A stretch of DNA of 39,630 bases from a virus, in IMG/VR virus record IMGVR_UViG_3300013103_000024, positions 1-39,630 of that record; one strand, 5' to 3'. Numbering within the stretch: position 1 is the stretch's first letter; every line of letters begins with the position of its first letter. The position numbers and the translations under genes are program-made. This document shows, in pieces, positions 11,095 to 39,222 of this stretch. The notes under the pieces are model-generated. The model was not told where the DNA came from, ran no database searches, and worked only from the letters and a program-made list of their open reading frames with translations.

Positions 11095-11589
11095 ATGTTT
11101 GGGAATGAATCAATGATACAACGAGTATCGCCATGGTACACTGATGGGGAAATAATTCGCCTCAGGAATCCTGAGTTATCAGTATCTTTGAATGAAATTT
11201 ATATACTTACCACAGATGATGCGACTTTATCCGGCACACCAGTAATCATCCGCTTGCAAGCACCCGATGGCACATATTACTATACAAAAGCATATCCAAA
11301 TGCATCAGCAACAGCAAATGCCACCATAGATGATATAGGTATAGACATTAGAGGAATCAATGATGCAACATTATCAGGCACACCAAAAACCTTTGAAGTC
11401 ATCAGTAATGATACATCATATTATTTCAATGCATATCCAACAATATCAGCGGAATCAGTCAGCAGTCGTGGCATAACCCCAACACCAACACAATATAATC
11501 ATGCAACCCTTTCGGGAACACCACGTGTTGCATCAGCACAAATTAATAGTACAGATTACTATTGGAAAGTATACCCAACCAAATCATAA
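11095..11589 (+). CDS. Protein of three ~40-aa ATLSGTP...Y.K/NAYP repeats; paralog of the C-terminal domain of 15792-16859
   Basis: Three ATLSGTP units; GAGGTGA RBS; 33-nt exact match 11353-11385 = 16623-16655. Confidence 0.7.
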   Translation: MFGNESMIQRVSPWYTDGEIIRLRNPELSVSLNEIYILTTDDATLSGTPVIIRLQAPDGTYYYTKAYPNASATANATIDDIGIDIRGINDATLSGTPKTFEVISNDTSYYFNAYPTISAESVSSRGITPTPTQYNHATLSGTPRVASAQINSTDYYWKVYPTKS

Positions 11590-11614
11590 TAATAATAATA
11601 AGGAGAATATAATA

Positions 11615-11890
11615 ATGAAAGGATATCCAAGACGTATTGCAACTGTGCAGGACTTTAAAAACCTGCTTGCGATGGAAGAATATAAAGCACAGGCAATTGC
11701 AGACTTGAAGGCACTTTATGCCATCGATGATGCAAAAATAACAAGAGCAACCACGCTCATTGATGAGAACGACCCCGAAAAGGGATGGAATACAGAGATA
11801 ATCGACAATCCACTGCCACGTTGGAAACAGATAGGCTTCAAGTCAAGAAAAGCAGTAAAAGATTTAATTATAAAATCGGAGGAAAAGTAA
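11615..11890 (+). CDS. 91-aa protein (MKGYPRRIATVQDF...) directly upstream of the DGR target
   Basis: AGGAG RBS before ATG 11615 (the ORF track extends it to 11501); stop is 1 nt before the target ATG. Confidence 0.7.
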   Translation: MKGYPRRIATVQDFKNLLAMEEYKAQAIADLKALYAIDDAKITRATTLIDENDPEKGWNTEIIDNPLPRWKQIGFKSRKAVKDLIIKSEEK

Positions 11891-11891
11891 T

Positions 11892-13151
11892 ATGGCAAAC
11901 AGATCATTAACGAAAGATGTAAGTGATAATATCGTCGCAGGAGCTGTGATCGCAAACTTCTTCTTGAATAAGCGCGACCGTCTACTCGAAAATCACACAG
12001 ATCACGATAAAGTCACATTTAAGGGATCAAACGAGATTCCTTTGAAAATCGGTGATAACTGGTTTTTTTGTGATACAGATGTAAATATCAGCACAGCTAC
12101 TCACATGGACACGGGATCGGTTGCAAATGGTAAAGACTATTATGTTTATGCCTGCAATAATGCTGGCACGCTTGAATTTAAAATCAGTTTGAACTCAACT
12201 ACCCCAACCGGATTCACTGCAGCAAATAGCCGGAAGATTGGTGGCTTCCACACACTGTGCGCAGATGTCGGAACGATCAGTGGGCACGCACTTTCAGGAT
12301 ATGTAGCAAACGACATTTTACCAACATCGATTTGGGATTTGAAGCATCGTCCTATCTGTGAACCAGAGGGCATGGTCTACGATGAAGGCACTGGTATATG
12401 GGTAGACATCTACCTCGCGAGTGGAACCGGAGCCTCAACAGCATCCGTGTATGGTGCAACAATCACAGACTCCCGGAACTGGATGGACTTCGTGGATGAC
12501 GGGCATGCTGTGATGAAACAACTACTCACTGATGAGCAGTTTACATCTATTGCGACAGGTGCCCCCGAAGAAGCACATGTATGGAATCGAAGTGATCCAG
12601 TCACAGCGGGTGGACATTCTGCATATTTCTTACTAACACTTGACGTTGGCCCAGCTGTCGATTGGGCAGCAGGTGATACTATCACTGGAGGAACGAGTGG
12701 TGTGACTTGCACGGTTGTAGAATGTTTGACAAATACGACGTATGTTTGTAAAAATATTAGTGATGCTGCTGGATTTACAGATGGCGAAGTTCTCAGTAAT
12801 GGCGCAGAATCGGCAGATCAGGGGACAGGTTATCCAACGTGGGCAGCACATGCAATGGGTAGAAATGTTTCAAATATTGGGTGTGAAGATTGTGTTGGAG
12901 CAATGCATCAGTGGCTATTGACGCCTTCCGCCCGACTTGATGATGGCACAGCAGGTGGATGGTATGATCTGGCAGGTGGTAAGGGTAGCTTTTACACATA
13001 TGGCAATAATAAATATGGAAACACTCAGCTCCGTGCGGGCGGTGATTGGGACGATGGGGCGTATTGCGGGTCTCGGTGTCGGGATGCGTTTTTCTATCGT
13101 TGGGTTGCGGATTCGCATGTCGGGGCCCGGCTCGGTGCGAAACCGCAGTAA
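11892..13151 (+). CDS. DGR target protein: Mtd-like receptor-binding protein with C-terminal C-type-lectin-fold variable region
   Basis: Mtd-like motifs GKDYYVY, KIGGFH, SIWDL..RP, GM......WVDIYL, SNIGCEDC.G...QW, terminal RAGGDW...CGSR.R...GARLGA; VR covers codons 380-416. Confidence 0.92.
   Translation: MANRSLTKDVSDNIVAGAVIANFFLNKRDRLLENHTDHDKVTFKGSNEIPLKIGDNWFFCDTDVNISTATHMDTGSVANGKDYYVYACNNAGTLEFKISLNSTTPTGFTAANSRKIGGFHTLCADVGTISGHALSGYVANDILPTSIWDLKHRPICEPEGMVYDEGTGIWVDIYLASGTGASTASVYGATITDSRNWMDFVDDGHAVMKQLLTDEQFTSIATGAPEEAHVWNRSDPVTAGGHSAYFLLTLDVGPAVDWAAGDTITGGTSGVTCTVVECLTNTTYVCKNISDAAGFTDGEVLSNGAESADQGTGYPTWAAHAMGRNVSNIGCEDCVGAMHQWLLTPSARLDDGTAGGWYDLAGGKGSFYTYGNNKYGNTQLRAGGDWDDGAYCGSRCRDAFFYRWVADSHVGARLGAKPQ
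13029..13139 (+). repeat. DGR variable repeat (VR), 111 nt
   Basis: Ungapped alignment to 13240-13350 with 24 mismatches, all opposite TR adenines (17 G, 6 T, 1 C). Confidence 0.97.
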
Positions 13152-13195
13152 GCAAATTGCAATACGAGAATGGAGAACGAAAAACATGATAAAGG

Positions 13196-13213
13196 TGACA
13201 TAAAACTATGTCA
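13196..13213. other. 7-bp hairpin TGACATA-AAAC-TATGTCA between VR and TR (candidate DGR cis element)
   Basis: Perfect inverted repeat with 4-nt loop, 45 nt after the target stop. Confidence 0.4.
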
Positions 13214-13479
13214 TTGGTTGCGGGGTTATTTAAAGAACACTCCATGCGGGCAGTGATTGGAACAATGGGACGAATTGCAGGTCTCAGTGTCAGAATGCGA
13301 ATAACTATCGTTGGAATGCGAATTCGAATATCAGAGCCCAGCTCAGTGCAGATACAGGAAAATGCGGTGCGAAGCCAACTCCTGGCTGAATCCTTCAACC
13401 ATGCCGAAAGGCGAAACACACAACGGAGGGAACGACCAATTAGTACCACACTGGGAACGCTGGTCGTTCCGAAAACATC
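13214..13479 (+). ncRNA. Probable DGR template RNA (TR plus structured 3' spacer); boundaries approximate
   Basis: Spacer holds three hairpins: AGCCA/TGGCT 13373-13387, GCC-GAAA-GGC 13403-13412, and a 10-bp stem GGAACGACCA/TGGTCGTTCC 13429-13470. Confidence 0.6.
13240..13350 (+). repeat. DGR template repeat (TR), 111 nt
   Basis: AAT/AAC-rich copy of the VR; 32 adenines, 24 of them substituted in the VR; no non-A mismatch. Confidence 0.97.
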
Positions 13480-14502
13480 ATGAAACGACATGGCAACCTC
13501 TTCAAAAGCATAGCAGAACCCACAAACATCTACAGGGCGTACACGAAAGCAAGAAAGGGCAAGCGGTGGCAGGATACCGTGAAACGTTTTGAGCACAACT
13601 TGGATCACGACATAGAGGTGATCCACAATGCACTGACAGACAAGACTTTTACAACTTCTCCATATACTCAAAAAACTATTTATGAACCAAAAGAGCGGAT
13701 AATCTACAAACTCCCATTCAATCCCGATCGAATTGTACAACATTCATTAATGAACATTCTTGAACCAATCTGGGATGCCTTGATGATCCACGACAGTTAT
13801 GCATGTAGAACCGGGAAAGGCATCCACGCAGGCAGTCGCAGAACGATGGAATTTATCAGACAAGTTGGCAAACATGGATATTGCCTGAAGATGGACGTGA
13901 GAAGGTTCTACCCTTCGATCAATCACGATCTCATGCATGACATTGTAAAGCAGAAGATGAAATGCAAAAACACACTCTGGCTCCTGCATGACATCATTTA
14001 TAGCTTCGGGGGCGGCTACAACATCCCAATTGGAAATTACACGTCTCAATGGCTTGGTAACCTCTATATGAATGAACTTGACCAATTCTTAAAGCACGAG
14101 TACCACGTCAAAAATTACATTCGATACTGCGATGATATCATAATCCTGCACAAAAACAAAACATACCTCCGCGAGATAGCAGATATATCAACAGAGTTTC
14201 TATCCAACAATCTCGATATGACTTTTGGAAAATGTGACATATTCCCAATCTCGCAAGGCATAGATTTCTTAGGATACCGTCATTTCCCTGAAAAGATTCT
14301 CCTCCGAAAGTCCACAACGAAACGAGTAAAACGACGGCTGCAACTCCTGCCGTTCCTGTTTGAACGCAAGGAAATCACACGAGAACAGTTCTGCTCATCG
14401 ATAGCCTCAACGATGGGTTGGCTCAAACACGCAAATGCATACAACCTCTCCAACAGTCTCGGCATAAACCGGATGTGGGGTGATCAGTGTGCAGCAGGAT
14501 GA
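13480..14502 (+). CDS. DGR reverse transcriptase
   Basis: Motifs DRIVQH, SYACRTGKG.H, LKMDVRRFYPSI, IPIGNYTSQ (DGR-type GxxxSQ), RYCDD, IDFLGY; 340 aa with no maturase or endonuclease domain. Confidence 0.97.
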   Translation: MKRHGNLFKSIAEPTNIYRAYTKARKGKRWQDTVKRFEHNLDHDIEVIHNALTDKTFTTSPYTQKTIYEPKERIIYKLPFNPDRIVQHSLMNILEPIWDALMIHDSYACRTGKGIHAGSRRTMEFIRQVGKHGYCLKMDVRRFYPSINHDLMHDIVKQKMKCKNTLWLLHDIIYSFGGGYNIPIGNYTSQWLGNLYMNELDQFLKHEYHVKNYIRYCDDIIILHKNKTYLREIADISTEFLSNNLDMTFGKCDIFPISQGIDFLGYRHFPEKILLRKSTTKRVKRRLQLLPFLFERKEITREQFCSSIASTMGWLKHANAYNLSNSLGINRMWGDQCAAG

Positions 14503-14791
14503 ATACCCACGATTCAGAGATTTCGCAGACGAGACTACACCATTTGAAGGTGATAAAATGAAAATAGACGATTTGTTAAATAAAGAAATACTTATTCTTG
14601 GTTTCAAAGAACGGGACAGCAAACAAAAACAAGGTACATCCTACGTAACAATACAATTCAAACTTGATGGTAAAGAATACATCATGTTTACAGGGTCAAA
14701 AGTAATCACAGATCAATTACATAAATACGAAGAGAACATACCGTTCTATGCAACGATAAAGAAAATAGACAGATATTATACATTTTCATAG
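14480..14791 (+). CDS. Small beta-rich (OB-fold-like) protein overlapping the RT stop; candidate DGR accessory factor
   Basis: 103 aa, GTG start inside the RT 3' end; alternating beta pattern EILILGF, YVTIQF, YIMFTGS, PFYATI, YYTF. Confidence 0.7.
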   Translation: MISVQQDEYPRFRDFADETTPFEGDKMKIDDLLNKEILILGFKERDSKQKQGTSYVTIQFKLDGKEYIMFTGSKVITDQLHKYEENIPFYATIKKIDRYYTFS

Positions 14792-15019: not shown

Positions 15020-15367
15020 ATAACCACAACATATACTACACCAACACTTGTGAGAAAACTTGTTAAAAATATTAGTGATGAATTATTAGATGCAGACCTT
15101 GAGCAATATATTAATGAAGCTGAGATATTAATAAATAGCACGATGAAGTATTCTTTCATAGACACATTTGATGCAACAAAACATGCAATCCTTCGTTCGT
15201 GTGCCACAGATTTAGCAGCATTAAAAGCAATCACTTATGATCCGGGCACAACATTTTTAAATCTTGATGATGCAAAAGCAACACATGATTTTTTAACAGC
15301 ATCAGCTGATCGTAACTTAAAATTACTTGAAGATCCGAGAATAGTGGAGTATTTGAAAAGCTTATGA
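15020..15367 (+). CDS. Second head-tail adaptor-like protein; probable ATA start at 15020 (GTG at 15050 alternative)
   Basis: GGAGG at 15007-15011 sits 8 nt before in-frame ATA giving (M)TTTYTTPTLVRKL; in-frame stop at 14999 excludes an ATG. Confidence 0.55.
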   Translation: MTTTYTTPTLVRKLVKNISDELLDADLEQYINEAEILINSTMKYSFIDTFDATKHAILRSCATDLAALKAITYDPGTTFLNLDDAKATHDFLTASADRNLKLLEDPRIVEYLKSL

Positions 15368-15792
15368 ATACACATGATGAAATCCGAGCTGCTATAATTG
15401 CTACACTGAAAGCGGATGATGCAATAAATGCAGCAGTGAAAACGTGGCTCATTTACTTATTAGATCCTGGCAGAATCACATATCCAGCTATTTATGTTGG
15501 TACAATTACTCAACCATTTGAATGTGAATGTGGAACTGATAAACAATATACAAGTATTGCAAACCCAATGGAAATTACTGTGGGTGTTTTATCAGATTTT
15601 AATACAGATGCAACGGGTACGCTTGGTACAATTTATGAATTAGTATATGCAGCACTTAAAGCATCTCCGACACTGGGACTTTCTGATTTTTATATTCACA
15701 GTATAACTCCAATTACAACAAAACCATTATCAAAATGTGGCAGGGCAGTGATCAGAGCAGAACTCACACTTAATGCAACAGGAGAAACTTAA
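15364..15792 (+). CDS. Tail terminator/completion-like protein
   Basis: IRAAIIATLKAD..I......P....YPAIYVG pattern, 142 aa, position before tail genes. Confidence 0.6.
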   Translation: MNTHDEIRAAIIATLKADDAINAAVKTWLIYLLDPGRITYPAIYVGTITQPFECECGTDKQYTSIANPMEITVGVLSDFNTDATGTLGTIYELVYAALKASPTLGLSDFYIHSITPITTKPLSKCGRAVIRAELTLNATGET

Positions 15793-16859
15793 TGATTGAA
15801 ACATCAACTTATAAGAAAAGACTCTTTGAGTTTTATGAACTGTATCACGAAAGTCGAACTAATATATCAGGGACAACAATAACTGTTGATGGAAAAAACC
15901 CACATGCTGATGTGATAGCATCTTCAGGACACAAATTAAAACGAACACGAGTGTATGTGAATGGCATAAGGGCAACAATAACAGAAGTTGCTGCCAACGG
16001 AGCAAATACAGACATTTCAGTATTAGATACAATTACATTAGGGGATATTGTAGACATATATCTTGCCACAAATACGGGAACACTTGCTAATAACACTGGC
16101 ACTGGAAAATTTCCATTAGTTGAATTACAAACAATTCAAAATTACGGTGTTAAAACTAATAGTTTTGATCAAGTTTGTTTTGGGTCCGGACGCAAAGAAT
16201 TTAGAAGATTTGAATCAGATGGCGTGGCATTACTCGGCACAAATCGCAGAGGAAATAACAACTTCAAAAATTTCATAATGGCACGACAGAATGGAACATA
16301 CCTGATGATCCTTGTAAAAGATTCTACTAATTTAAATATAATTTATGACATTCTCCATGAAGTAAGAGTTGAATCTTATAAAAGATTAACACGATCCATT
16401 GAAACAAAAGATGGAATAATAACAGATTTGATTACATTTCGTTTTGTTCCAGAAGTATCAACAACTGCTGCACTTCAGCATGCAACATCATTTGATGATA
16501 CAACTTTATCTGGCACGCCAACAATTATAAAATTCCAGAACCCGGATTACTTCGCAAAAGTGTATCCAACCGCTTCAGTAACAGCAAACGAAGTATCTGA
16601 TCCAATCGGGACTGACGTTCTTGGAATCAATGATGCAACATTATCAGGCACACCATTAGTTGCAGAGATAATAAGTGGTGAAACTAAATATTATATAAAA
16701 GTGTATCCAACCATATCAGCCGAAGTTGTTGCAAGTACGGGGATTGTTCTATCTCCCGTATTTCATTCTAATGCAACCCTTTTAGGTACACCAAGAATCT
16801 TAGCCATTCCAATCAATGGAACAAATCAATACATTAAAGGATACCCCCATAAGGTATAA
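15792..16859 (+). CDS. Tail-tube-like protein paralog 1 with C-terminal triple ATLSGTP repeat domain
   Basis: First ~220 aa paralogous to 16898-17581 and 17593-18297; last ~125 aa paralogous to 11095-11589. Confidence 0.55.
   Translation: MIETSTYKKRLFEFYELYHESRTNISGTTITVDGKNPHADVIASSGHKLKRTRVYVNGIRATITEVAANGANTDISVLDTITLGDIVDIYLATNTGTLANNTGTGKFPLVELQTIQNYGVKTNSFDQVCFGSGRKEFRRFESDGVALLGTNRRGNNNFKNFIMARQNGTYLMILVKDSTNLNIIYDILHEVRVESYKRLTRSIETKDGIITDLITFRFVPEVSTTAALQHATSFDDTTLSGTPTIIKFQNPDYFAKVYPTASVTANEVSDPIGTDVLGINDATLSGTPLVAEIISGETKYYIKVYPTISAEVVASTGIVLSPVFHSNATLLGTPRILAIPINGTNQYIKGYPHKV
15890..15991 (+). repeat. 102-nt perfect direct repeat, copy 1 (copy 2 at 16996-17097)
   Basis: Direct comparison; a second identical 41-nt block at 15810-15850 / 16916-16956. 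Confidence 0.95.
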
Positions 16860-16897
16860 GTATATATTCAATGAAGTATAATAAAGGAGATAAATAG

Positions 16898-17581
16898 ATG
16901 ACAGATATAACAACCTATAAGAAAAGACTCTTTGAGTTTTATGAACTGTATCACGATGTGCAAGACACAGCATCAGGGACCACAGTCACCGTGACTGGAA
17001 AAAACCCACATGCTGATGTGATAGCATCTTCAGGACACAAATTAAAACGAACACGAGTGTATGTGAATGGCATAAGGGCAACAATAACAGAAGTTGCAGC
17101 ATCTGGCGCAGATACGGTTATCACGGTATCTGATACAATCAATTCTGGGGACAAAGTAGACATATATCTCGCAACAACGGTGGGGACGCTTGTTAACAAT
17201 ACTGATACTGGAAAGTTCCCATTGGTTGAATTACAAGCATTGCAGAATTATAAAACCACTTCAAATACATTTGATCAACCCGGATGTGGCACGGAGCGTT
17301 TGGAAACCATTAAGTTTGCATCAGATGGTGAAGCAACAATGAATTTAATTCGCAGGGGTAATGATACTTTCAAAAATTTCATAATGGCACGACAAAATGG
17401 CAAATACTTAATGATCATTGCAAGAAATACTACAGATGCAGCTAACACAGTTTATGAGGTTATCTCTGAAGCAAGAGTTACCAGTTATAGCAGAGGCACG
17501 CGAGCAATTGATGCAAAGGGTGGTGAAGTTGTGGATCAAATTAAATTCCAATATGTACCACCAGTAGAAATTTCAACATAG
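16898..17581 (+). CDS. Tail-tube-like protein paralog 2
   Basis: 227 aa, AGGAG RBS, paralogous to neighbours. Confidence 0.55.
   Translation: MTDITTYKKRLFEFYELYHDVQDTASGTTVTVTGKNPHADVIASSGHKLKRTRVYVNGIRATITEVAASGADTVITVSDTINSGDKVDIYLATTVGTLVNNTDTGKFPLVELQALQNYKTTSNTFDQPGCGTERLETIKFASDGEATMNLIRRGNDTFKNFIMARQNGKYLMIIARNTTDAANTVYEVISEARVTSYSRGTRAIDAKGGEVVDQIKFQYVPPVEIST
16996..17097 (+). repeat. 102-nt perfect direct repeat, copy 2
   Basis: Identical to 15890-15991. Confidence 0.95.
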
Positions 17582-25718: not shown

Positions 25719-26171
25719 TTAGCTTACTGAATCTGCGAATGCTATTGCCATTCGTTTAGCATCATCAAGAGTTTTCGCCGTGAACCCGACTGGCAAACTC
25801 ATATCTTCTTCAGGATGTTGGCTCAGATATTCAGCTGTCCATCCTGACATTGCTGTGCAATCACCTTCTTTTACAACATCTCCAATACCAAAACCACACA
25901 TAGCCCGATGTGACCACCCATACCATTTTTGATCTCGCTCTGAAAAACCAATCGAACAAATGCAATCAGTTTGTCTAATTTTTTCAGGAGCAATACCATA
26001 CTTCACAACCAGCCTATGTGCTTCCTTTGATGTTCCTATCCAGTCACCGTTTGGGGTATATGCCATTCGTTTCATCAGTGTTTTTTCACCAAATGAATCC
26101 CAGTATTCATCCCGAACGACATAGCCTGCTTTATATTTTCTTTCCCTAATTACTTCTGTTACATTTACCAT
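25719..26171 (-). CDS. Conserved-looking phage hypothetical protein (CSIGFSE..QKWYGWSHRA motif)
   Basis: Likely start ATG 26171 with GAAGG RBS; the ORF track's extension to 26354 overlaps the upstream gene. Confidence 0.6.
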   Translation of the reverse strand: MVNVTEVIRERKYKAGYVVRDEYWDSFGEKTLMKRMAYTPNGDWIGTSKEAHRLVVKYGIAPEKIRQTDCICSIGFSERDQKWYGWSHRAMCGFGIGDVVKEGDCTAMSGWTAEYLSQHPEEDMSLPVGFTAKTLDDAKRMAIAFADSVS

Positions 26172-26199
26172 AATTTTACCTTCCAAAAATTCTTTACTT

Positions 26200-26667
26200 T
26201 TAAAATTGTATAAAATCTGGTTTATAATCACTTTGTTTCCAGTGCATTGTTTCATCATTTTGAGGTTCGATAATAATGATCTGCATATCTTCTGATCGAA
26301 TTGTAAGATTAAACGCGTGATAACCTGCTGGCACACAGCCTTCGCAATATGCATACAGATAGTTCACATTATTGATTCGTCCTAACTCTCGTATTCTGCA
26401 TCTTGACTCAAGAGCAAAGTCATCACAATCGCTAACTGTCTTCAAGTATCGCATTTCATTGAGCGAATCTGTATTAAGCCATCTGATGAGTTCGGAATAT
26501 GGCGGAATAATATACATTCGATCTGAAATTCTTAGTTCTGCATCTGGATATGCTTTTTCAATTATGTCTACAATTTCATGTGCAAATATATCATAATCTG
26601 CGTTCTCGAATCGAAATGGTTTCTGTTTGGGACAAAGTGCCTGACAAATAATATGACGCAAGTTCAT
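26200..26667 (-). CDS. Papain/transglutaminase-like cysteine protease (Cys-His-Glu), candidate endolysin
   Basis: DCDDFA...YHAFN...IIEPQND catalytic pattern; located in the operon with the holin-like gene. Confidence 0.65.
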   Translation of the reverse strand: MNLRHIICQALCPKQKPFRFENADYDIFAHEIVDIIEKAYPDAELRISDRMYIIPPYSELIRWLNTDSLNEMRYLKTVSDCDDFALESRCRIRELGRINNVNYLYAYCEGCVPAGYHAFNLTIRSEDMQIIIIEPQNDETMHWKQSDYKPDFIQF

Positions 26668-27919: not shown

Positions 27920-28747
27920 TTAAATATAATTTTTAATTTTATGAAAATTAAACAATGTTGTTTGATATTTGTGTTTTTGGAATATATTATTCACTTTATC
28001 AAGATATGAGTACCAATTACGCTTTAATTCGCTTTGATTTGATGCATACATTTGTTTTTTCTGGTATTTATATTTACAATCATTGTGTGTCCACGCTGCT
28101 GTATCACAACTATGCAAACGGCTAAATATTGCATAGTTTCTTAAAAATGATATTTTAAAGCCAAAAAAATGTGTTTTCGCATCTGAATATCTACGTATAT
28201 GATCCATTATCTTTGTAAATAGCTTAGAATATCTATTGCGTTGGCACACTGAACCAAATGCAACATAATCAGTAATAAGTTCACGTTTATGCATTTCATC
28301 TATACAAAACTTATAATCATCTAAATCCCATCCTTGTATTACAGGAATTATTTTTGTTCCATTATATGAATAATTGTTTAACATTAACTCATTATTTTCA
28401 ATAGTTTTTATTATTCGATCTTTTACTGATAGCTGGCACATGCTTTCTTTGTTTGTGATTTCAAGTATTGGTTCACAAGGATAATCCATCGTGGCTGCAA
28501 ATGTGGGTTTAATGCGCCTTATTAACGAACTGTATTGATCCATATTGAATGGATATTCATGCCATTTTGAAAGCAACGAAAATCCACCACTATCAAGAAA
28601 AAACGATTTATGTGGAGGAATGAACTTTGATAATGTAAAATCCATAGTTCTTTTTGAGAAGAAATACGATGCTGGCATCATAAGATATGGATAAAAATCA
28701 AGCTTCTTATCAAGCGATGATCCTGACAAAACCATATAAAAATTCAT
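27920..28747 (-). CDS. tRNA-guanine transglycosylase-like (DpdA/TGT-like) TIM-barrel protein
   Basis: FFLDSGGFS, MDYPCEP, IIPVIQGW, VAFGSVC, THFFG, SCDTAAW match the TGT-fold motif order. Confidence 0.75.
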   Translation of the reverse strand: MNFYMVLSGSSLDKKLDFYPYLMMPASYFFSKRTMDFTLSKFIPPHKSFFLDSGGFSLLSKWHEYPFNMDQYSSLIRRIKPTFAATMDYPCEPILEITNKESMCQLSVKDRIIKTIENNELMLNNYSYNGTKIIPVIQGWDLDDYKFCIDEMHKRELITDYVAFGSVCQRNRYSKLFTKIMDHIRRYSDAKTHFFGFKISFLRNYAIFSRLHSCDTAAWTHNDCKYKYQKKQMYASNQSELKRNWYSYLDKVNNIFQKHKYQTTLFNFHKIKNYI

Positions 28748-29627: not shown

Positions 29628-30197
29628 TCATTCAAACCATTTTGATAAAACATCTTGTTGGGGTGGATAAAGTTCTTTAATGTTTATTTTTTTAATACAA
29701 TCACTATTAAAATCCTTAATTGGAATTGCTATATTATCAGTATGCCATCTCCGAGTTCCTCTTACTGATACTGCACGTTTTTGCAATGGTGTGTGTATCT
29801 TAAGATATTGCTTTAAAAACTCTCTAATATTGTTCATAAATAACAAATATCCATCAATGAATTTTTTACCAGTTTCATTTTTCCACACATAAACAATAAC
29901 ATCAGATTTTGAAGAATATAACCAACCAGGTTTTTCATCTTCAACTACTGATACAGTTTCTAAAAGAATATCTTTAAACTGATATGCATAGAAGTCTCTA
30001 CATTTCACATCAAATGATAATTCGTTATGTGTTATATTAAAATCAATACCATTGCGTTGTTTTTGTGTTTCTGTTATCGAATTACCATATACAAATTGTT
30101 GTAATATCGGTTCAAAAACCACTTTAAATTTATCACGAACCATGTCTTCACATATTCCACCTTCTTTGACATTTATATTAAAATCATTTGTATTCAT
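29628..30197 (-). CDS. PD-(D/E)XK restriction-endonuclease-like protein
   Basis: E...R...GIDF...SFDVKCRD...DILLET...KPGW; coupled to the MT-A70 gene. Confidence 0.7.
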   Translation of the reverse strand: MNTNDFNINVKEGGICEDMVRDKFKVVFEPILQQFVYGNSITETQKQRNGIDFNITHNELSFDVKCRDFYAYQFKDILLETVSVVEDEKPGWLYSSKSDVIVYVWKNETGKKFIDGYLLFMNNIREFLKQYLKIHTPLQKRAVSVRGTRRWHTDNIAIPIKDFNSDCIKKINIKELYPPQQDVLSKWFE

Positions 30198-31531
30198 ACT
30201 TCATTACCCCACACTGTCCATTTATCATTATGCCGTTTTCTTGCAAACATTTCGAGATACTTTCCATCGGGGAACATTTTCTCAATCATTTCGTAAACAC
30301 AATCTGGTTTTTTGCTGTGTGTGGTTCGTGTTTCCCGTATCACACTACTAAACCGATTTTCTGGTATCGGTGGTGAATAGTTTCCCTTTTTACCAACAAG
30401 CAATAATTCGTGTTGCCCTCTGAACCAGTAACCCATCCCGATTTTTTCTTTATCCCACACAGCACCTGTTAGATATTTAAAACCCCAAAACTCCATTAAG
30501 TCAAGTGCTTCTATTAATTTTGGCATTGTAGCCCACATTAAAACTACACTATCATTAGCAGCAGGAACAGGAAGGTTTTTTATTTCTTCCAGTTCCATCG
30601 TTTGATAATGATTCTCAATTTCACGATTACCAGTTTCTGTGAAATCATATTTCCATGGAGGATCAACATAAATCACATCAAATTTATCAACAGGCAATGG
30701 AGGGGTTTCTATTTTCGGCATAGATTTATTTTCTTCAATTTTTTTTATATCGTTCAACGCCTTTCTGGGAGTGGTTTCACCCTTTAACACTGATGGTAAA
30801 ATTTTCTTAGCTTTTTCGTTACCTTCTTTTGCTTTGTCCAATATCTTCAAAGTTTCGTGAGCTGCATTAACAGTAACTTCGTTGTTGTTCAGTTTATCAA
30901 GAACCTCTCTTGCGATTTTATCACCATTATCTGCCTTATCTACAATGACTTCAACTTTTGTGTAATTGGTACGTTTCATACCAACTTCATCGGCCACTTT
31001 ATTACGCGTTTCGTTCTCACTTGCTTTTGGTTTTGTTGTTTCGGGTAACGCTTCCGTCAACATTGGCGGAAGCGTTGCTTCGTTGCCTATTTTTTTACCT
31101 TCTCGTTCCGCCAATGTTGGCGGAACGACAATCGTTTCTTTAACATTATTCAATTGTGATAATTGTTTTAACCGTGCACGTTCAGCATAGATTACCTTCA
31201 ACGTTTTACCTTCCCTCACACGCTGTTCTGGTGTCTTCTCTCTTTGACGGTTGAATTCTATCATCGCCTCCTTTTCATCCAAATCATTATCAAAAGTGAT
31301 GGTTCGACATGGAATTCTATCAAGTTTCAAATGTTTAGCAGCAAGCCACCGTCTATGACCTGATAGGATAATATTATCATCACGAATAACAAGTGGTTCA
31401 AGAATGCCTTTGTTTTTAATACTCTCTACTAAATCCATATCAATGGATTCATTACCATAAATTTCAACGTTCAGATTGTGTGGTCTAAGTTCTTTTGGTG
31501 ATTTGAGAACGTTATAAGCCATACTTACCAT
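30194..31531 (-). CDS. ParB-HTH-MT-A70 family adenine methyltransferase fusion
   Basis: N-terminal ParB (GILEPLVI..DNIILSGHRRW); C-terminal DVIYVDPPW, HYQTM, WGFKY, GMGYWFRGQHE, HSKKPD, YLEMFAR. Confidence 0.9.
   Translation of the reverse strand: MVSMAYNVLKSPKELRPHNLNVEIYGNESIDMDLVESIKNKGILEPLVIRDDNIILSGHRRWLAAKHLKLDRIPCRTITFDNDLDEKEAMIEFNRQREKTPEQRVREGKTLKVIYAERARLKQLSQLNNVKETIVVPPTLAEREGKKIGNEATLPPMLTEALPETTKPKASENETRNKVADEVGMKRTNYTKVEVIVDKADNGDKIAREVLDKLNNNEVTVNAAHETLKILDKAKEGNEKAKKILPSVLKGETTPRKALNDIKKIEENKSMPKIETPPLPVDKFDVIYVDPPWKYDFTETGNREIENHYQTMELEEIKNLPVPAANDSVVLMWATMPKLIEALDLMEFWGFKYLTGAVWDKEKIGMGYWFRGQHELLLVGKKGNYSPPIPENRFSSVIRETRTTHSKKPDCVYEMIEKMFPDGKYLEMFARKRHNDKWTVWGNEV
31047..31127. 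repeat. Two related palindromes in the ParB-MTase linker (31047-31076, 31104-31127)
   Basis: AACGCTTCCGTCAA-CA-TTGGCGGAAGCGTT and CGTTCCGCCAA-TG-TTGGCGGAACG. Confidence 0.85.
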
Positions 31532-31840: not shown

Positions 31841-32821
31841 TTATTCCTCCGTGAAAAATGATTCGATATGCGGAATATGGGATTTGCATCGTTCGGGATA
31901 CAGGGATTCCCATTGTGGATCAATCTCAAAGCCAATGCAATTGCGATTTGTTCTACGACATGCTTCGAGGGTTGTGCCACTGCCGAGAAATGGATCGCAG
32001 ATTAGATCACCTTCATTGCTTGATATCTTGATCATCCTTTCGATCAATTCAACTGGCTTTGTTGTCGGATGGCTTGTGTTCTCTGCACCACTTATGATCG
32101 GGATGTCAAATACTTCGTACATATTCTTATATGGATTGAATACACGCCGCAAGTCCTCATAGTTCCGCACAAAAAAACCAGTCTTCCTTAATTTCCCGTA
32201 TAGTTCGAGAGTTGGAAAACAATATTGTGAATCTGCAAAGTAATGGCGGGTTACAACTGATTTGGTGTCAGTGATTTTGTTCAAGTATGCATCACACTCT
32301 GCTTTTGTCTTAAACCCATTCGCTTCCATCACCTTCTGATATTCCCCTCGCATGTATTCTTTTATCGGTGCGAAACAATCTTTATCACTATGAATTGCCT
32401 GAAGCCCAGTTGCTGGTAATCCATTTTCAGATTTTTGTTCGTAGAATAAAATGCGCTCCGAAATGCAAACATAACGTCTTGAGCTCATTGCACCCTTGAT
32501 GCTCTGATTATTTCGTTTATACCAAACCAGATGATTCAAAAATGAAAAATGCTTATCAAGTCTCACTTGAATATATGCAATTCTGTGATCATCACCAAAA
32601 ACATATAACGAACCGTTTGGCTTTAAAATTCTCTTAATTTCTATTGCTATTGATTCAAGCCAATTAAGATATTCATCAAACGTCTCCCACTGTTTATCCC
32701 AATCTGCCTTATTAACTTTGTAGTAAGGAGGATCGGTCAACACCAAATCAACACTATTATCTTCAAGTTCTTTCATTAACTCCAAACAATTGCCAATTTT
32801 CCAAATCTGCTTCGTTATCAT
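31841..32821 (-). CDS. Beta-class amino (N4C/N6A) DNA methyltransferase
   Basis: GNCLELM, VDLVLTDPPY, HPTTKP, DPFLGSGTT, GFEID. Confidence 0.92.
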   Translation of the reverse strand: MITKQIWKIGNCLELMKELEDNSVDLVLTDPPYYKVNKADWDKQWETFDEYLNWLESIAIEIKRILKPNGSLYVFGDDHRIAYIQVRLDKHFSFLNHLVWYKRNNQSIKGAMSSRRYVCISERILFYEQKSENGLPATGLQAIHSDKDCFAPIKEYMRGEYQKVMEANGFKTKAECDAYLNKITDTKSVVTRHYFADSQYCFPTLELYGKLRKTGFFVRNYEDLRRVFNPYKNMYEVFDIPIISGAENTSHPTTKPVELIERMIKISSNEGDLICDPFLGSGTTLEACRRTNRNCIGFEIDPQWESLYPERCKSHIPHIESFFTEE

Positions 32822-35367: not shown

Positions 35368-35514
35368 TTATTTCCCATTACCATGTTTTATTGGGAGTAA
35401 ACAAACCATAACTTCTCTGTCAATCCATGTTTTTGGTACGTGGATTTTTCCAGAACTACCTGAGTTCCGAGTAACACGCTTAATTGTATCGTCCACTTCT
35501 AATTCTATTTTCAT
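35368..35514 (-). CDS. 48-aa DUF2080-like (AbrB-type) archaeal protein
   Basis: Hand translation MKIELEVDDTIKRVTRNSGSSGKIHVPKTWIDREVMV...; GGTGA RBS. Not in the ORF track. Confidence 0.65.
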   Translation of the reverse strand: MKIELEVDDTIKRVTRNSGSSGKIHVPKTWIDREVMVCLLPIKHGNGK

Positions 35515-35653
35515 AATTTTCTCACCATTATGTATATGTTTTACATACTATATATAACTTTTTGTTTACTTTGTTTTTATATTTTATTTTTGATCACATA
35601 AGAAAAGTTTATATACCATGATTTTTTAAAAAAATATGTGAGGTAATCATATC

Positions 35654-35873
35654 TGTGTATACTGTGTATACTGTGTATATTCGTGTCTACTGATGCTGGT
35701 TTTGTTGTGTATACACTGTGTATACGTATACACAATTTGTGTATATTTTCAAAAAGTTGCGTTTAAGAGAAAGTAGTAACACGATATACACAGAACGTAA
35801 CAACTGTGTATATTTATACACAAAATATACACAAGCATAATGTCAACCGATAGTGATATACACAATATACACA
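35654..35873. repeat. Iteron-like array A: TGTGTATA x7 and inverted TATACACA x6
   Basis: Forward at 35654, 35663, 35672, 35706, 35717, 35738, 35805; reverse at 35727, 35785, 35815, 35826, 35857, 35866. Confidence 0.9.
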
Positions 35874-36103
35874 AATTTTTGATATGGCATTCATTTTTTT
35901 TAAAAAAAAATATAATAGTATATAAAGGGATATGTTTTGATCATCTCTTCATTTTTATATTTACTTCATTCATGGAAGTTGTGTTTATGTATATATACCT
36001 TTAGAAAAGTTTATATTATATAGTAATATTACTTTATACTTATTTATTTATATATATAATGTTATCTACTTTTTCAAAAAAGTGAATGCCCTGTGAAAAA
36101 AAA

Positions 36104-36348
36104 TGTGTTAAATGTGTTAATTCGATAGCAGTAGGCACAAAACACATGTGTTAATTCTGTGTTAATTCTGTGTTAATTGTGTTAATAAAATTCTTTCTAA
36201 AGTGTAACTATCTAAATTTTTATATTAATAAAGTTTTTTTAAAAGTTTGACTATCTAAATTTTTTTGTTAACACAGTTAACACACGATTAACACATGATT
36301 AACACACGATTAACACACACAAGAGGCACGATTAACACAATTAACACA
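36104..36348. repeat. Iteron-like array B: TGTGTTAA x6, AT-rich spacer, inverted TTAACACA x7 (probable replication origin)
   Basis: Forward at 36104, 36113, 36147, 36158, 36169, 36178; reverse at 36268, 36277, 36288, 36299, 36310, 36332, 36341; spacer has ACTATCTAAATTTTT twice (36207, 36250). Confidence 0.9.
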
Positions 36349-36436
36349 TAATAATGCAATATACCTCATGTTTCTTCAAAAATTAACAGTATATAAAAGT
36401 TTCGATTGTCTTTTTGTTATATCAATTATTATAAAT

Positions 36437-36766: not shown

Positions 36767-36875
36767 CGTCGTCGTAATACTGGATGTTGAAGAATATCTT
36801 CCCTGTCACCACGCAGCTTTCGCCTGTATGCCGGTTTGTGTATCGCTTCCCTACTTCAATGCGTTTTCGGTTCAT
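36609..36875 (-). CDS. Hypothetical protein (probably chimeric; 3' part reads out of frame through the PAPS remnant)
   Basis: IEVGKRYTNRHTG SH3-like start with GGAGG RBS. Confidence 0.45.
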   Translation of the reverse strand: MNRKRIEVGKRYTNRHTGESCVVTGKIFFNIQYYDDDDPHRTHAKYCHYKRFQKNWREEGRWTYRSATNIGLVGKRRVGIYHIEQLAI

Positions 36876-39222
36876 TGTTACCTCCGAAATATCCTGTTAG
36901 CGGTGGTGTGTGTGCCATTGCGATATCAGGAAGAGGTTTGTCTTTGATGTAAAATCCATCTTTCATACAGTTCTCTTCCATCTTCAACGCTTTGTCATAC
37001 AAATCCCGGTGGTTCAAAAACAATTCACGGACTTCGAGTTTGTGCATAAATGGACAGAACCAACATCCGCTTTTTTGTGGCACTTTAAGACCATGATCTT
37101 TTATCAGATTGATACAGTCGTCACGGTTCATCTCTGCATCGATGAGTGGGTATCGATATGTTATTGCGGGCAGTTTTTCTTTCGATTCTTTGTTGTTGTA
37201 CTGTTTTTTACCATCCAGCGATGTCGTTCTTTTTTGTTCGTCATAGTCAAAACCAATATATTCCACACATGGTGTTTGGATATATTTCAACATCGGACGT
37301 ACTTTGAATTTATCCGTACACCACCTAAACCGAAAAGATGGTAAAATCCTACATTTCATCGAATAATCATAGATTGTATGATACCCTTCCACATCTGGGA
37401 TAATCTCCGTTATCTCAAATCCTTGGTCACGTAAATAATCCACATACGCGTAAGTTTCGGGATAATCACCGCCATGATTCACAAATATGGTCTCGAACTC
37501 CTCACCATGATCTGTGAGTAGAAGGAGCAGCGCAGTCGAATTGACGCCGCCACCAAACGAAAGATACTGTTTCATGTTTCCAATCCTCATTACAATCTCC
37601 GATTTTCCACTTGTGTTGTTTTCTATCATCTCGAATAAATCGAATCCTTGTCTGTTCTTTTCTTCTGTAATTTGATCGATCACATCTCTCTTGCTTTCAA
37701 CCATTTCAATTATTATACCATCTATTGTTTTTTCTGCAAGGAGATACCAACAATTTACAGCGTCCTTTTGACCTATTCTATGTGCTCGATCTTCACATTG
37801 TTTTAGCATCTCAGGACCATCTGCAAGTTCCAGGAATGCAACATTGCTGGCTGCTGTAAGTGTCAATCCTTGTCCTGCTGCCTGAATGTTCCCAATGAAA
37901 AGCCGTATTTTTTGATCGTTCTGGAATGCCTTAACTGCCTTATCCTTTGCCTCTGCTTTCATTCCTCCGATTACGGAAACTGCACAATCTGAAAATTCAT
38001 CCACCAACGTCTTAATTGTTGTCCTGTGCGTCCCAAAAACGATAAGTTTCTCGCCTGATTCGAGAAAGTTTTTAATCCATTCAATTGCAGCTTTCATCTT
38101 GCCACGAATTGCAACCTGCTTAAGATATTCTCGCTTCGCAAGTTGCTCAACATTAGATGCTCGTTCTGCTGCTTCCATACCTTTTTGTTCTGCTAACCAT
38201 GTGAAAAATTCTTTCTCAGCACGATCATATTCTTTGCGATTATCAATTGGTATCAAGACAGCTGATCTTCTCTTCGCTGGCAGTTCTGAAAGTACCTGTT
38301 CTTTTGTTCTTCTAATCATTACAGTCTTAAGTGACTGTGCCAGTTCGTCAAGATTTGAAGCTCCAGAGAAGTCCCAACCAAAGCGATTTTTAGTGGCATT
38401 ACAGAACTTCTTATGCCATTGAAAGAATCGCTTATCTGGATATTCGTCTGGTTTCACAACTTGTAACTGATGCCACAGTTCTGCGGGACGATTCAGAACT
38501 GGCGTTCCTGTCAGGAGTATCCTGTGCGGAACGACTGATGCCAATTCCCTTGCTGCTTTTGATCTTGCAGCAGCTTTTGATTTAATATAATGACTTTCGT
38601 CATATATTAATACTTTTGGATTAAAGTCTATCAATGTTGGTAACCACTTTTTCAGTATGTCATAGTTTATTACTACAATATCTCCTGATAACGATTTGGC
38701 TTTCCCACCATTAACAATCTCAATACGATCTCCTGTTTCAAGCCACATCTCCGCCTCTCGTTGCCAGTTCAACTTAAGTGATGCAGGACATACAATCACA
38801 GCTGGACGCTGTTCTGGATGTAATGCGAGATATGCGAGTGCTTCAATGGTTTTGCCAAGCCCGGGTTCATCCGCTACCAAACAATTCCCATTGGTTGCCT
38901 CTATGAATTCCAGTCCTGCGCGTTGGAATGGCATCAGTTCTTTACCATTCCCGAAGTGCTCAAGACTGAAATCTGATGTGGTTTGTGTTGCCTTCTTGCT
39001 GATCGAACGAACCTCTGCCAACCGTTTTTTGAATCCTTCTGTTTGTTCTGCTTCCGGGAAGGCTGTCACCATCTCTTCAATGATCGAGGTGGGGCATACC
39101 CAATACGGCTTTACCCATCTACGTTCTGATAATGCTCTACATCGATCCTTTTCACTGAAAGGAGCTTGCACTCCAACCATGCCAGACATGAAACTCACAA
39201 GTCTGATCTTTCCTTTCTTCAT
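36856..39222 (-). CDS. SNF2/SMARCAL1-like helicase fused in frame to a PAPS-reductase-like (HUP) domain
   Basis: ADEPGLGKT, DESH, LTGTP, QCEDRAHRIGQ (aa 1-~545); from aa 550 YLSFGGGVNS, DYPETY, WCTDKFKV, YPLID, KSGCWFCPF. Confidence 0.85.
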   Translation of the reverse strand: MKKGKIRLVSFMSGMVGVQAPFSEKDRCRALSERRWVKPYWVCPTSIIEEMVTAFPEAEQTEGFKKRLAEVRSISKKATQTTSDFSLEHFGNGKELMPFQRAGLEFIEATNGNCLVADEPGLGKTIEALAYLALHPEQRPAVIVCPASLKLNWQREAEMWLETGDRIEIVNGGKAKSLSGDIVVINYDILKKWLPTLIDFNPKVLIYDESHYIKSKAAARSKAARELASVVPHRILLTGTPVLNRPAELWHQLQVVKPDEYPDKRFFQWHKKFCNATKNRFGWDFSGASNLDELAQSLKTVMIRRTKEQVLSELPAKRRSAVLIPIDNRKEYDRAEKEFFTWLAEQKGMEAAERASNVEQLAKREYLKQVAIRGKMKAAIEWIKNFLESGEKLIVFGTHRTTIKTLVDEFSDCAVSVIGGMKAEAKDKAVKAFQNDQKIRLFIGNIQAAGQGLTLTAASNVAFLELADGPEMLKQCEDRAHRIGQKDAVNCWYLLAEKTIDGIIIEMVESKRDVIDQITEEKNRQGFDLFEMIENNTSGKSEIVMRIGNMKQYLSFGGGVNSTALLLLLTDHGEEFETIFVNHGGDYPETYAYVDYLRDQGFEITEIIPDVEGYHTIYDYSMKCRILPSFRFRWCTDKFKVRPMLKYIQTPCVEYIGFDYDEQKRTTSLDGKKQYNNKESKEKLPAITYRYPLIDAEMNRDDCINLIKDHGLKVPQKSGCWFCPFMHKLEVRELFLNHRDLYDKALKMEENCMKDGFYIKDKPLPDIAMAHTPPLTGYFGGNNEPKTH

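Follow-up and report, generated by a model that had tools for sequence, protein, structure and literature searches.

An intact, compact diversity-generating retroelement without Avd in a virus genome fragment from IMG/VR

The IMG/VR virus record IMGVR_UViG_3300013103_000024 (positions 1 to 39,630, i.e., the whole 39,630-nucleotide stretch analysed here and called the window) carries a diversity-generating retroelement (DGR), which comprises a target gene ending in a variable repeat (VR), a template repeat (TR), a structured spacer, a reverse transcriptase (RT) gene and a small gene whose product is predicted to adopt an oligonucleotide/oligosaccharide-binding (OB) fold. The window is the entire record, linear and estimated by CheckV to be 35% complete. 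We conclude that the cassette is an intact DGR, with every defining DGR feature that could be checked found in place. Its elements, all on the plus strand, are the following:

11892-13151, plus strand: target gene of the DGR (419 aa), homologous to Mtd of the Bordetella phage, whose last 37 codons are the VR
13029-13139, plus strand: VR, target codons 380-416 of 419, matching the TR over 111 nt without gaps
13136-13147, plus strand: candidate small hairpin TGCG-AAAC-CGCA (4 bp, DNA fold) at the 3' boundary of the VR, in a zone resembling an initiation-of-mutagenic-homing (IMH) site
13196-13215, plus strand: hairpin between VR and TR with stem GTGACATA/TATGTCAT, in both the minimum free energy (MFE) and the centroid fold
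13240-13350, plus strand: TR, with 32 adenines, 130 nt upstream of the RT start
13351-13479, plus strand: structured spacer RNA, 129 nt, with three helices and covariation
13355-13358/13381-13384, plus strand: spacer helix 1, which competes with a CUCC/GGAG pairing in the window fold
13402-13405/13410-13413, plus strand: spacer helix 2 with a GAAA loop, present in the window's own MFE fold
13429-13438/13461-13470, plus strand: spacer helix 3, a perfect 10-bp stem, present in the window's own MFE fold
13480-14502, plus strand: DGR RT gene, 340 aa, uninterrupted, with the motifs IGNYTSQ and YCDD
14489-14791, plus strand: small acidic OB-fold-like gene, 100 aa, isoelectric point about 5.4, overlapping the RT stop, a candidate accessory gene

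The starts of the two repeats lie 211 nt apart, and the 111-nt ungapped identity breaks off at both flanks of 13029-13139 and of 13240-13350. Within it the two repeats mismatch at 24 positions, all of them TR adenines (the TR has 32), and the VR bases facing them are G in 17 cases, T in six and C in one. The hypergeometric chance that 24 mismatches would all fall within 32 adenines of 111 positions is 7.8e-18. Since TR and VR show no difference outside adenines over the 111 nt, the last homing event must have been recent relative to ordinary mutation. The VR continues the reading frame of the target gene at its 3' end, 22 of the 24 changes hit codon positions 1 or 2, and the TR, read in the register of the VR, contains nine AAY codons. 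An earlier annotation of this DNA, made from the sequence alone and referred to below as the original prediction, had reported the same repeat coordinates and mismatch counts, an uninterrupted 340-aa RT with GNYTSQ and YCDD, and on this basis a DGR; our re-alignment returned the same values, and the DGR identity is borne out by the adenine-specific repeat pair, the DGR-type RT and the Mtd-like target.

The target is a true homologue of Mtd, by profile and by fold. It matches the Pfam family mtd_2nd (PF21916, E 1.2e-25) and the tail protein family phrog_11262 (E 1.7e-56), while a profile built from 21 members of the target family matches the Mtd structures 1yu0-1yu4 and 2iou (E 1e-21), with a second aligned segment over Mtd's own VR (…GGSW…GSRA…IGARG…), and also the Thermus DGR variable protein TaqVP (5vf4, E 3e-6). 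The AlphaFold (AF2) model of the target has a mean pLDDT of 62.6 and a confident N-terminal half, and a Foldseek search with it returned Mtd variants alone (E 1e-12 to 3.6e-14), the next match standing at 8e-3. The C-type lectin fold that the original prediction expected is only partly backed by this model: the profile covers the VR and Foldseek finds Mtd only, but the C-terminal, lectin half is modelled at a pLDDT of 30-60, which counts against it. Because of this low confidence, it is homology by profile that carries the lectin assignment, and on this footing the VR is placed within the predicted ligand-binding C-type lectin domain at the 3' end of the target. Besides, relatives align on either side of target residues ~243-323 (window 12620-12860), a segment that the Mtd profile skips and that we read as a variable insert of about 80 residues inside the lectin region.

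The RT aligns over its full length with the structure of the Bordetella RT (bRT, 8ub7) at E 5.6e-50 and 174 bits, has 34% identity with bRT across 322 aa, and places its IGNYTSQ and YCDD motifs against the IGSLTSQ and YMDD of bRT. It also matches phrog_1423 (E 1e-114). A quick maximum-likelihood tree (LG+G4) of 112 RTs, with a group II-like RT as the root, puts it inside a clade of 41 sequences with an SH-aLRT value of 98, and all 46 invariant columns of the RT alignment are preserved in it. The RT of the virus ANMV-1 sits in the sister clade of this tree on a long branch (0.88), and long-branch joins were flagged. The RT thus groups with DGR enzymes, apart from those of group II introns and retrons; clustering with the latter, which the original prediction had named as a refuting outcome, is not seen.

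About 150 loci were collected for comparison by RT searches of IMG/VR and JGI metagenomes and by searches of GTDB genomes with the small downstream open reading frame (ORF), and their VR/TR pairs were found by a diagonal scan that tolerates mismatches at TR adenines. Adenine-specific pairs were present in nearly all related loci of sufficient length, and the 39 distinct related pairs share one layout. Loci with at least 40% RT identity to the window have VRs of 98-132 nt, VR-TR gaps of 56-105 nt, TR-RT gaps of 105-160 nt and, at the RT stop, a small ORF in overlap with it or adjoining it, whereas loci below 40% RT identity mostly have VR-TR gaps of 320-600 nt, with room for avd as in Bordetella BPP-1. 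In the window, the whole interval from VR to RT measures 341 nt, TR included. The Avd family PF05635 gave no match in six-frame translations of the window, even at E<=1, and no conserved ORF lies between VR and RT in 37 relatives. From this gene content and spacing, the cassette appears to belong to a compact Avd-less class and not to the Avd-dependent type of BPP-1. Two points weigh against this assignment and against the functional account given below: the record is a fragment, so an avd gene could lie elsewhere in the genome, and the nearest RT relatives in IMG/VR or the JGI metagenomes are 66% identical, with none closer.

The spacer between TR and RT is strongly conserved, with invariant blocks that include ACTCCTGGCTG, ACGGAG and TAGTA. 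In an alignment of 26 elements, in which the helices were called by RNAalifold, compensatory changes occur in 14 of 19 pairs. Paired cells amount to 91% as opposed to 74% in shuffled alignments (none of 500 shuffles reached 91%), and when the partner columns are slid, 38-56% of the cells pair. In BPP-1, the bRT-Avd complex needs the Sp RNA, which the spacer of the window resembles in its putative role. A search of the whole window against Rfam returned no family, and a tRNA scan found no tRNA. An ORF of 91 aa that runs across the TR (13208-13483) was considered as an accessory gene and rejected, because TR-spanning ORFs vary among relatives (37-112 aa, with inconsistent ends) and because this stretch shows RNA covariation. 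The hairpin between VR and TR has a counterpart of the GTAAC...GTTAC type at the equivalent site in relatives. For the candidate hairpin at the VR boundary, the whole interval around 13136-13147 reaches a z-score of only -1.9.

The genes around the cassette bear on the identity of the virus. The plus strand encodes the terminase large subunit (TerL), the major capsid protein (MCP), a probable tape measure protein and other virion genes, while the minus strand encodes an MCM-family helicase, DpdA, a Tad6 homologue, a fusion of SNF2 and PAPS reductase, and DNA methyltransferases. TerL is 56% identical to that of Methanosarcina virus MetMV, compared with 35% for the best bacteriophage among 50,697 phage records, and its closest named relative (79%) is on a 5.5-kb contig of a metagenome-assembled genome (MAG) labelled 'Euryarchaeota archaeon'. 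MCP and MCM have no match among these phage records. The nearest Atlas clusters of the MCM helicase are archaeal or belong to Uroviricota, a CBM96 protein gives a faint match to disaggregatase repeats, and the cassette is closest to that of vir525, a virus linked to Methanosarcinales by computation; host labels such as these are themselves computed. On these homologies, the host is probably a Methanosarcinales-like archaeon, an assignment that we make with reasonable but far from full confidence.

The best-surviving alternative, which we consider unlikely though by no means negligible, is that the DGR is real and the virus is a bacteriophage, with the archaeal-looking matches resulting from mosaic exchange and mis-binning of MAGs. 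Several observations favour it and weigh against an archaeal host. The RT, OB-like gene and Mtd-like target occur together on long bacterial MAG contigs, of 376 kb and 174 kb in Melainabacteria, 280 kb in Omnitrophota and 90 kb in Desulfovibrio. A Gammaproteobacteria label is attached to the one MCP relative that has a name (57%), and a Chloroflexota label to a TerL relative (72%). Besides, a Tad6 homologue is present, and apart from MCM the window yielded no marker of archaeal transcription or replication. The overlap between the window and MetMV consists of TerL only, that with vir525 or ANMV-1 of the cassette plus a small ORF, and the single IMG/VR relative of the MCP (L161, 72%) has two genes in common with the window. 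Against a bacteriophage stand the gap between the 56% TerL identity to MetMV and the at most 35% to any bacteriophage, the euryarchaeal label of the closest named TerL relative, the Methanosarcinales-assigned virus with the closest cassette, and an MCM-family helicase, which is typical of archaeal viruses; moreover, where the contigs measure 11-42 kb, mis-binning of viral contigs may account for the bacterial labels. The archaeal virus of the original prediction is therefore supported by TerL, the vir525 cassette and MCM, but given the bacterial MAG contigs and the bacterial-labelled relatives of the virion genes it is not established.

Some further features of these genes were noted. The terminase of MetMV (L071, MK170447, 8105-9154) matches residues 12-45 and 46-412 of the window TerL around an extra ~1 kb, which suggests an intein or another insertion. 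Genes of counter-defence and DNA modification lie at 25719-26354, 27920-28747 and 36856-39222 on the minus strand, at 1545-2735, and at 30194-31531 and 31841-32821 on the minus strand; they comprise the homologue of Tad6, a Thoeris inhibitor (E 4e-58), DpdA, which stands for 7-deazaguanine DNA modification, the SNF2 helicase with its fused PAPS-reductase domain, and DNA methyltransferases, three in number, of which two carry a ParB domain at the N-terminus.

Diversification was assessed in sister elements of the same lineage. In nine groups of elements from different samples with identical or near-identical TRs, 133 VR differences lie at TR-adenine columns and nine elsewhere, a concentration from which it follows that the lineage is active in nature. 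We infer that the window's own copy is active now as well. A recently inactivated relic, in which the genes are intact and retrohoming has stopped, is improbable. It draws on the sequence directly after the VR, which reads GCGAAACC in the window as opposed to GCGGAGCC in the consensus of the lineage (in relatives, GGAGCC is conserved after the VR, and the TR is followed by GATCC or GATAC), a point that weighs against present activity. On the other hand, all ORFs are intact, the RT retains each of the 46 invariant columns, no difference between TR and VR has accumulated outside adenines, the spacer helices are intact and sister elements are diversifying, all of which speak for a functional element.

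The substitutions follow a marked sequence context. Over the 39 distinct VR/TR pairs (L003-L151), TR adenines in the context CA[G/C] appear as G in the VR in ~95% of cases, i.e., 96% of 194 CAG sites and 88% of 51 CAC sites, while the other TR adenines appear as A in 33-46%, G in 20-34%, T in 10-26% and C in 9-23%. That all ten CpA dinucleotides of the window's TR are CpG in its VR had already been noticed in the original prediction; the count of 10 out of 10 holds, and the pattern is general across the 39 pairs. The change to G is seen across the three codon positions (100/108, 42/43 and 45/47) and also at 35 of 36 four-fold-degenerate third positions, so selection on amino acids cannot account for all of it. 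By comparison, the CA[G/C] context gives A 25 and G 16 in 31 pairs from DGRs whose RT is less than 40% identical to that of the window. Context effects on the fidelity of bRT have been measured, and none reported there is near-deterministic (PMC12875486). Simple template slippage, i.e., the re-use of the 3' neighbour or previous base as modelled in the same work, was rejected as an explanation, for it predicts A-to-C changes at NAC, which are not seen. Possible causes are context-dependent insertion of dC by the RT complex, selection at the nucleotide level, or modification of the template.

The small gene after the RT is assigned the start GTG at 14489, and not 14480, by the gene caller. Its protein has 46 homologues in a collection of 5.8 billion proteins, with ten invariant residues, and among the phage records it occurs in vir525 and ANMV-1 only, each time directly 3' of the RT. 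The gene lies 3' of the RT in all complete related loci. A genome search with this ORF alone yielded 28 loci, 23 of which have a DGR-type RT adjacent; the RT-linked loci come mostly from bacterial MAGs and include Desulfobacterota, Omnitrophota, Melainabacteria, Chlorobi, Spirochaetes, members of the CPR (candidate phyla radiation) as well as other bacteria. A locus in an Aenigmatarchaeota MAG has no RT match beside the gene, and two of the remaining RT-less loci end at a contig edge. In a Bacteroidales MAG (L070, 4930-6234) the OB-like domain is fused to the C-terminus of the RT within one ORF of 435 aa, and in four loci (L052, L059, L096 and L100) a free-standing OB-like gene lies 5' of the RT instead of 3'. 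Mapped on the RT tree, presence of the gene requires 6 changes, compared with 35.8 in shuffles, and the four entries without it in the window's RT clade are all truncated contigs. There is thus a strong case that the OB-like gene belongs to the DGR cassette.

The AF2 model of the protein (pLDDT 87.7) is a five-stranded barrel with one helix. In VIA-align its residues 27-100 match almost only OB folds (Z 5.0-7.3), among them the DII domain of Rvb2, bacterial and mitochondrial SSB, PriB, RPA and Teb1. A Foldseek search of the model against the PDB gave nothing at E<=0.001, and a complex prediction of RT and OB-like protein scored 0.00, which carries no weight either way. Going by the modelled fold, the protein probably binds single-stranded nucleic acid as a cofactor in the place of Avd. 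The OB fold matches are middling, the best reaching Z 7.3, and this is the point that weighs against such a role and favours a neighbouring virion gene or an otherwise unrelated gene outside the DGR. The latter is a very improbable reading, considering that the ORF travels with the RT in the otherwise unrelated window, vir525 and ANMV-1, neighbours an RT in those 23 of 28 loci across many bacterial phyla, overlaps the RT stop, is fused to the RT in L070 and tracks the RT clades. Lastly, a reading in which the two repeats are a duplication due to chance or recombination and the RT comes from a group II intron or a retron can practically be dismissed: the best NCBIfam match of the RT is indeed group_II_RT_mat, at 112 bits far under the cut-off of 300 in a collection that has no DGR model, but the enzyme scores 57 bits (E 2.4e-14) against group II intron RTs and 53 bits (E 3.6e-13) against retron RTs compared with 174 bits against bRT, the RT tree and the adenine specificity of the repeats contradict it, and the window has neither an intron RNA, Rfam returning nothing there, nor a maturase domain.

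We propose that the TR and the structured spacer 3' of it would be transcribed together, and that the RT would copy the TR into cDNA while misreading template adenines. The cDNA would then replace the VR at the 3' end of the Mtd-like gene, and up to ~21 codons of the predicted C-type lectin tip could be rewritten in this way, for ~10^12 to 10^18 protein variants (computed as ~10^17.8, or ~10^12 if the CA[G/C] sites are fixed). The OB-fold-like protein, translationally coupled to the RT, would likely serve as a nucleic-acid-binding cofactor instead of Avd. Taken as a whole, an intact, compact, Avd-less DGR working along these lines is very probable in our judgement. By analogy with Mtd, the target may bind a host receptor; of the receptor-binding protein that tracks surface receptors in the original prediction, the homology to Mtd is retained, and the role is deduced from this homology alone.

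More tentatively, the cassette could represent a DGR lineage common to archaeal viruses and many bacteria that uses an acidic OB-fold cofactor instead of Avd and converts CA[G/C] adenines to G in a nearly deterministic way, a combined proposition that is possible and that we would not yet favour. If it were true, the TR would mask the scaffold codons that stay invariant (Gly, Arg and Ala) by presenting them as codons with an A, TR and VR would stay distinct, and diversity would be concentrated on the AAY codons.

Elsewhere in the window, a repeat unit of ~46 aa (ATGCAAC...TCAGGCACACCA, spacing 138-144 nt) occurs in small genes at 11095-11890, directly upstream of the target, and again at the end of the ORF 15792-16859 (window 16498-16859; families D1 and D3-D5). 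The adjacent paralogues 15792-16859 and 16898-17581 share a 59-nt stretch at their 5' ends that is 90% identical (family D7) and further blocks, and the similarity across 15792-17581 may stem from gene conversion. The ~1 kb at 35385-36436, which separates the MCM operon from the SNF2 gene, contains no ORF of at least 80 aa on either strand; it could function as an origin of replication or in regulation.

As a DGR, the element of the window is ordinary. Tens of thousands of DGRs have been catalogued from metagenomes (Roux 2021, PMC8144416), and ANMV-1 is already a precedent for a DGR in a putative archaeal virus. The original prediction named this precedent, which stands, with the same compact architecture and a small ORF after the RT; its statement that DGRs of archaeal viruses are rarely described is overstated, as close relatives of the cassette occur on 22 IMG/VR contigs and on dozens of metagenome contigs. 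No description of the OB-like gene, the spacer RNA or the CA[G/C]-to-G rule was found in the literature searched, which is not proof of novelty.

The closest deposited cassette is that of vir525 (Caudoviricetes sp., BK063673), with the same gene order and identities of 64% for the RT, 60% for the OB-like gene and 46-50% for the target. In contrast to the window, vir525 encodes a sheath and baseplate and has a GC content of 53% (38% in the window), and outside the cassette the two have one small ORF in common. In ANMV-1 (adtA-TR-RT; Paul et al. 2015, PMC4372165; KP703175), order and spacing are as in the window (gaps of 101 and 114 nt), and the two also agree in the ~100-aa ORF directly after the RT, 43% identical to the OB-like gene of the window, in the Mtd-like target with nine AAY codons and in the position after the head genes. 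On the other hand, the RT of ANMV-1 is only 37% identical and falls outside the RT clade of the window, the rest of the genome is unrelated, and ANMV-1 encodes a TBP, which the window does not. The figure legend of the ANMV-1 study lists an Avd ORF (PMC4372165); the post-RT ORF homologous to the OB-like gene is annotated as hypothetical in the GenBank record.

Two neighbouring ORFs also have relatives next to these DGRs. The ORF 15050-15367 has two counterparts (38-44% identity) flanking the DGR of ANMV-1, of which one is annotated as 'capsid tail fiber', and the ORF 11501-11890 matches vir525_00051, which lies beside the DGR of vir525. Judging from such similarities, the module that moves between viruses may be larger than target, RT and OB-like gene.

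The TR-RT core without avd is also known from Architecture A, Lineage 3 of Wu et al. 2018 (PMC5758913), and there Avd-independent retrohoming was deduced for Avd-less DGRs. As far as its main text goes, that study lists Avd, HRDC, MSL, CH1 (160-169 aa) and the tentative PAG1-4 and names no gene of ~100 aa after the RT, and the OB-like gene might equal one of the PAGs. With BPP-1 (mtd-avd-TR-brt), the window shares the class of mechanism, an RT of 34% identity, target homology over most of the protein, VR segment included, and a structured spacer after the TR. They differ in the VR-TR gap (438 nt in BPP-1, 100 nt in the window), in the lack of an Avd match in the window, in the acidic OB-fold-like gene 3' of the RT as opposed to the basic helical Avd, in the insert of ~80 residues in the target (243-323), and in the CA[G/C] adenines, which are nearly always G in the VRs of the window's lineage.

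The value of the window is thus that of a clean and complete example of a compact Avd-less lineage, in which priming and mutagenesis without Avd are at issue. If the host is indeed a methanogen or methanotroph, one lineage of DGR cassettes would move between viruses of two domains. The OB-like gene, the covarying spacer and the context-dependent A-to-G change are three testable parts in which this lineage can be compared with BPP-1, for which reconstitution assays exist (PMC12875486).

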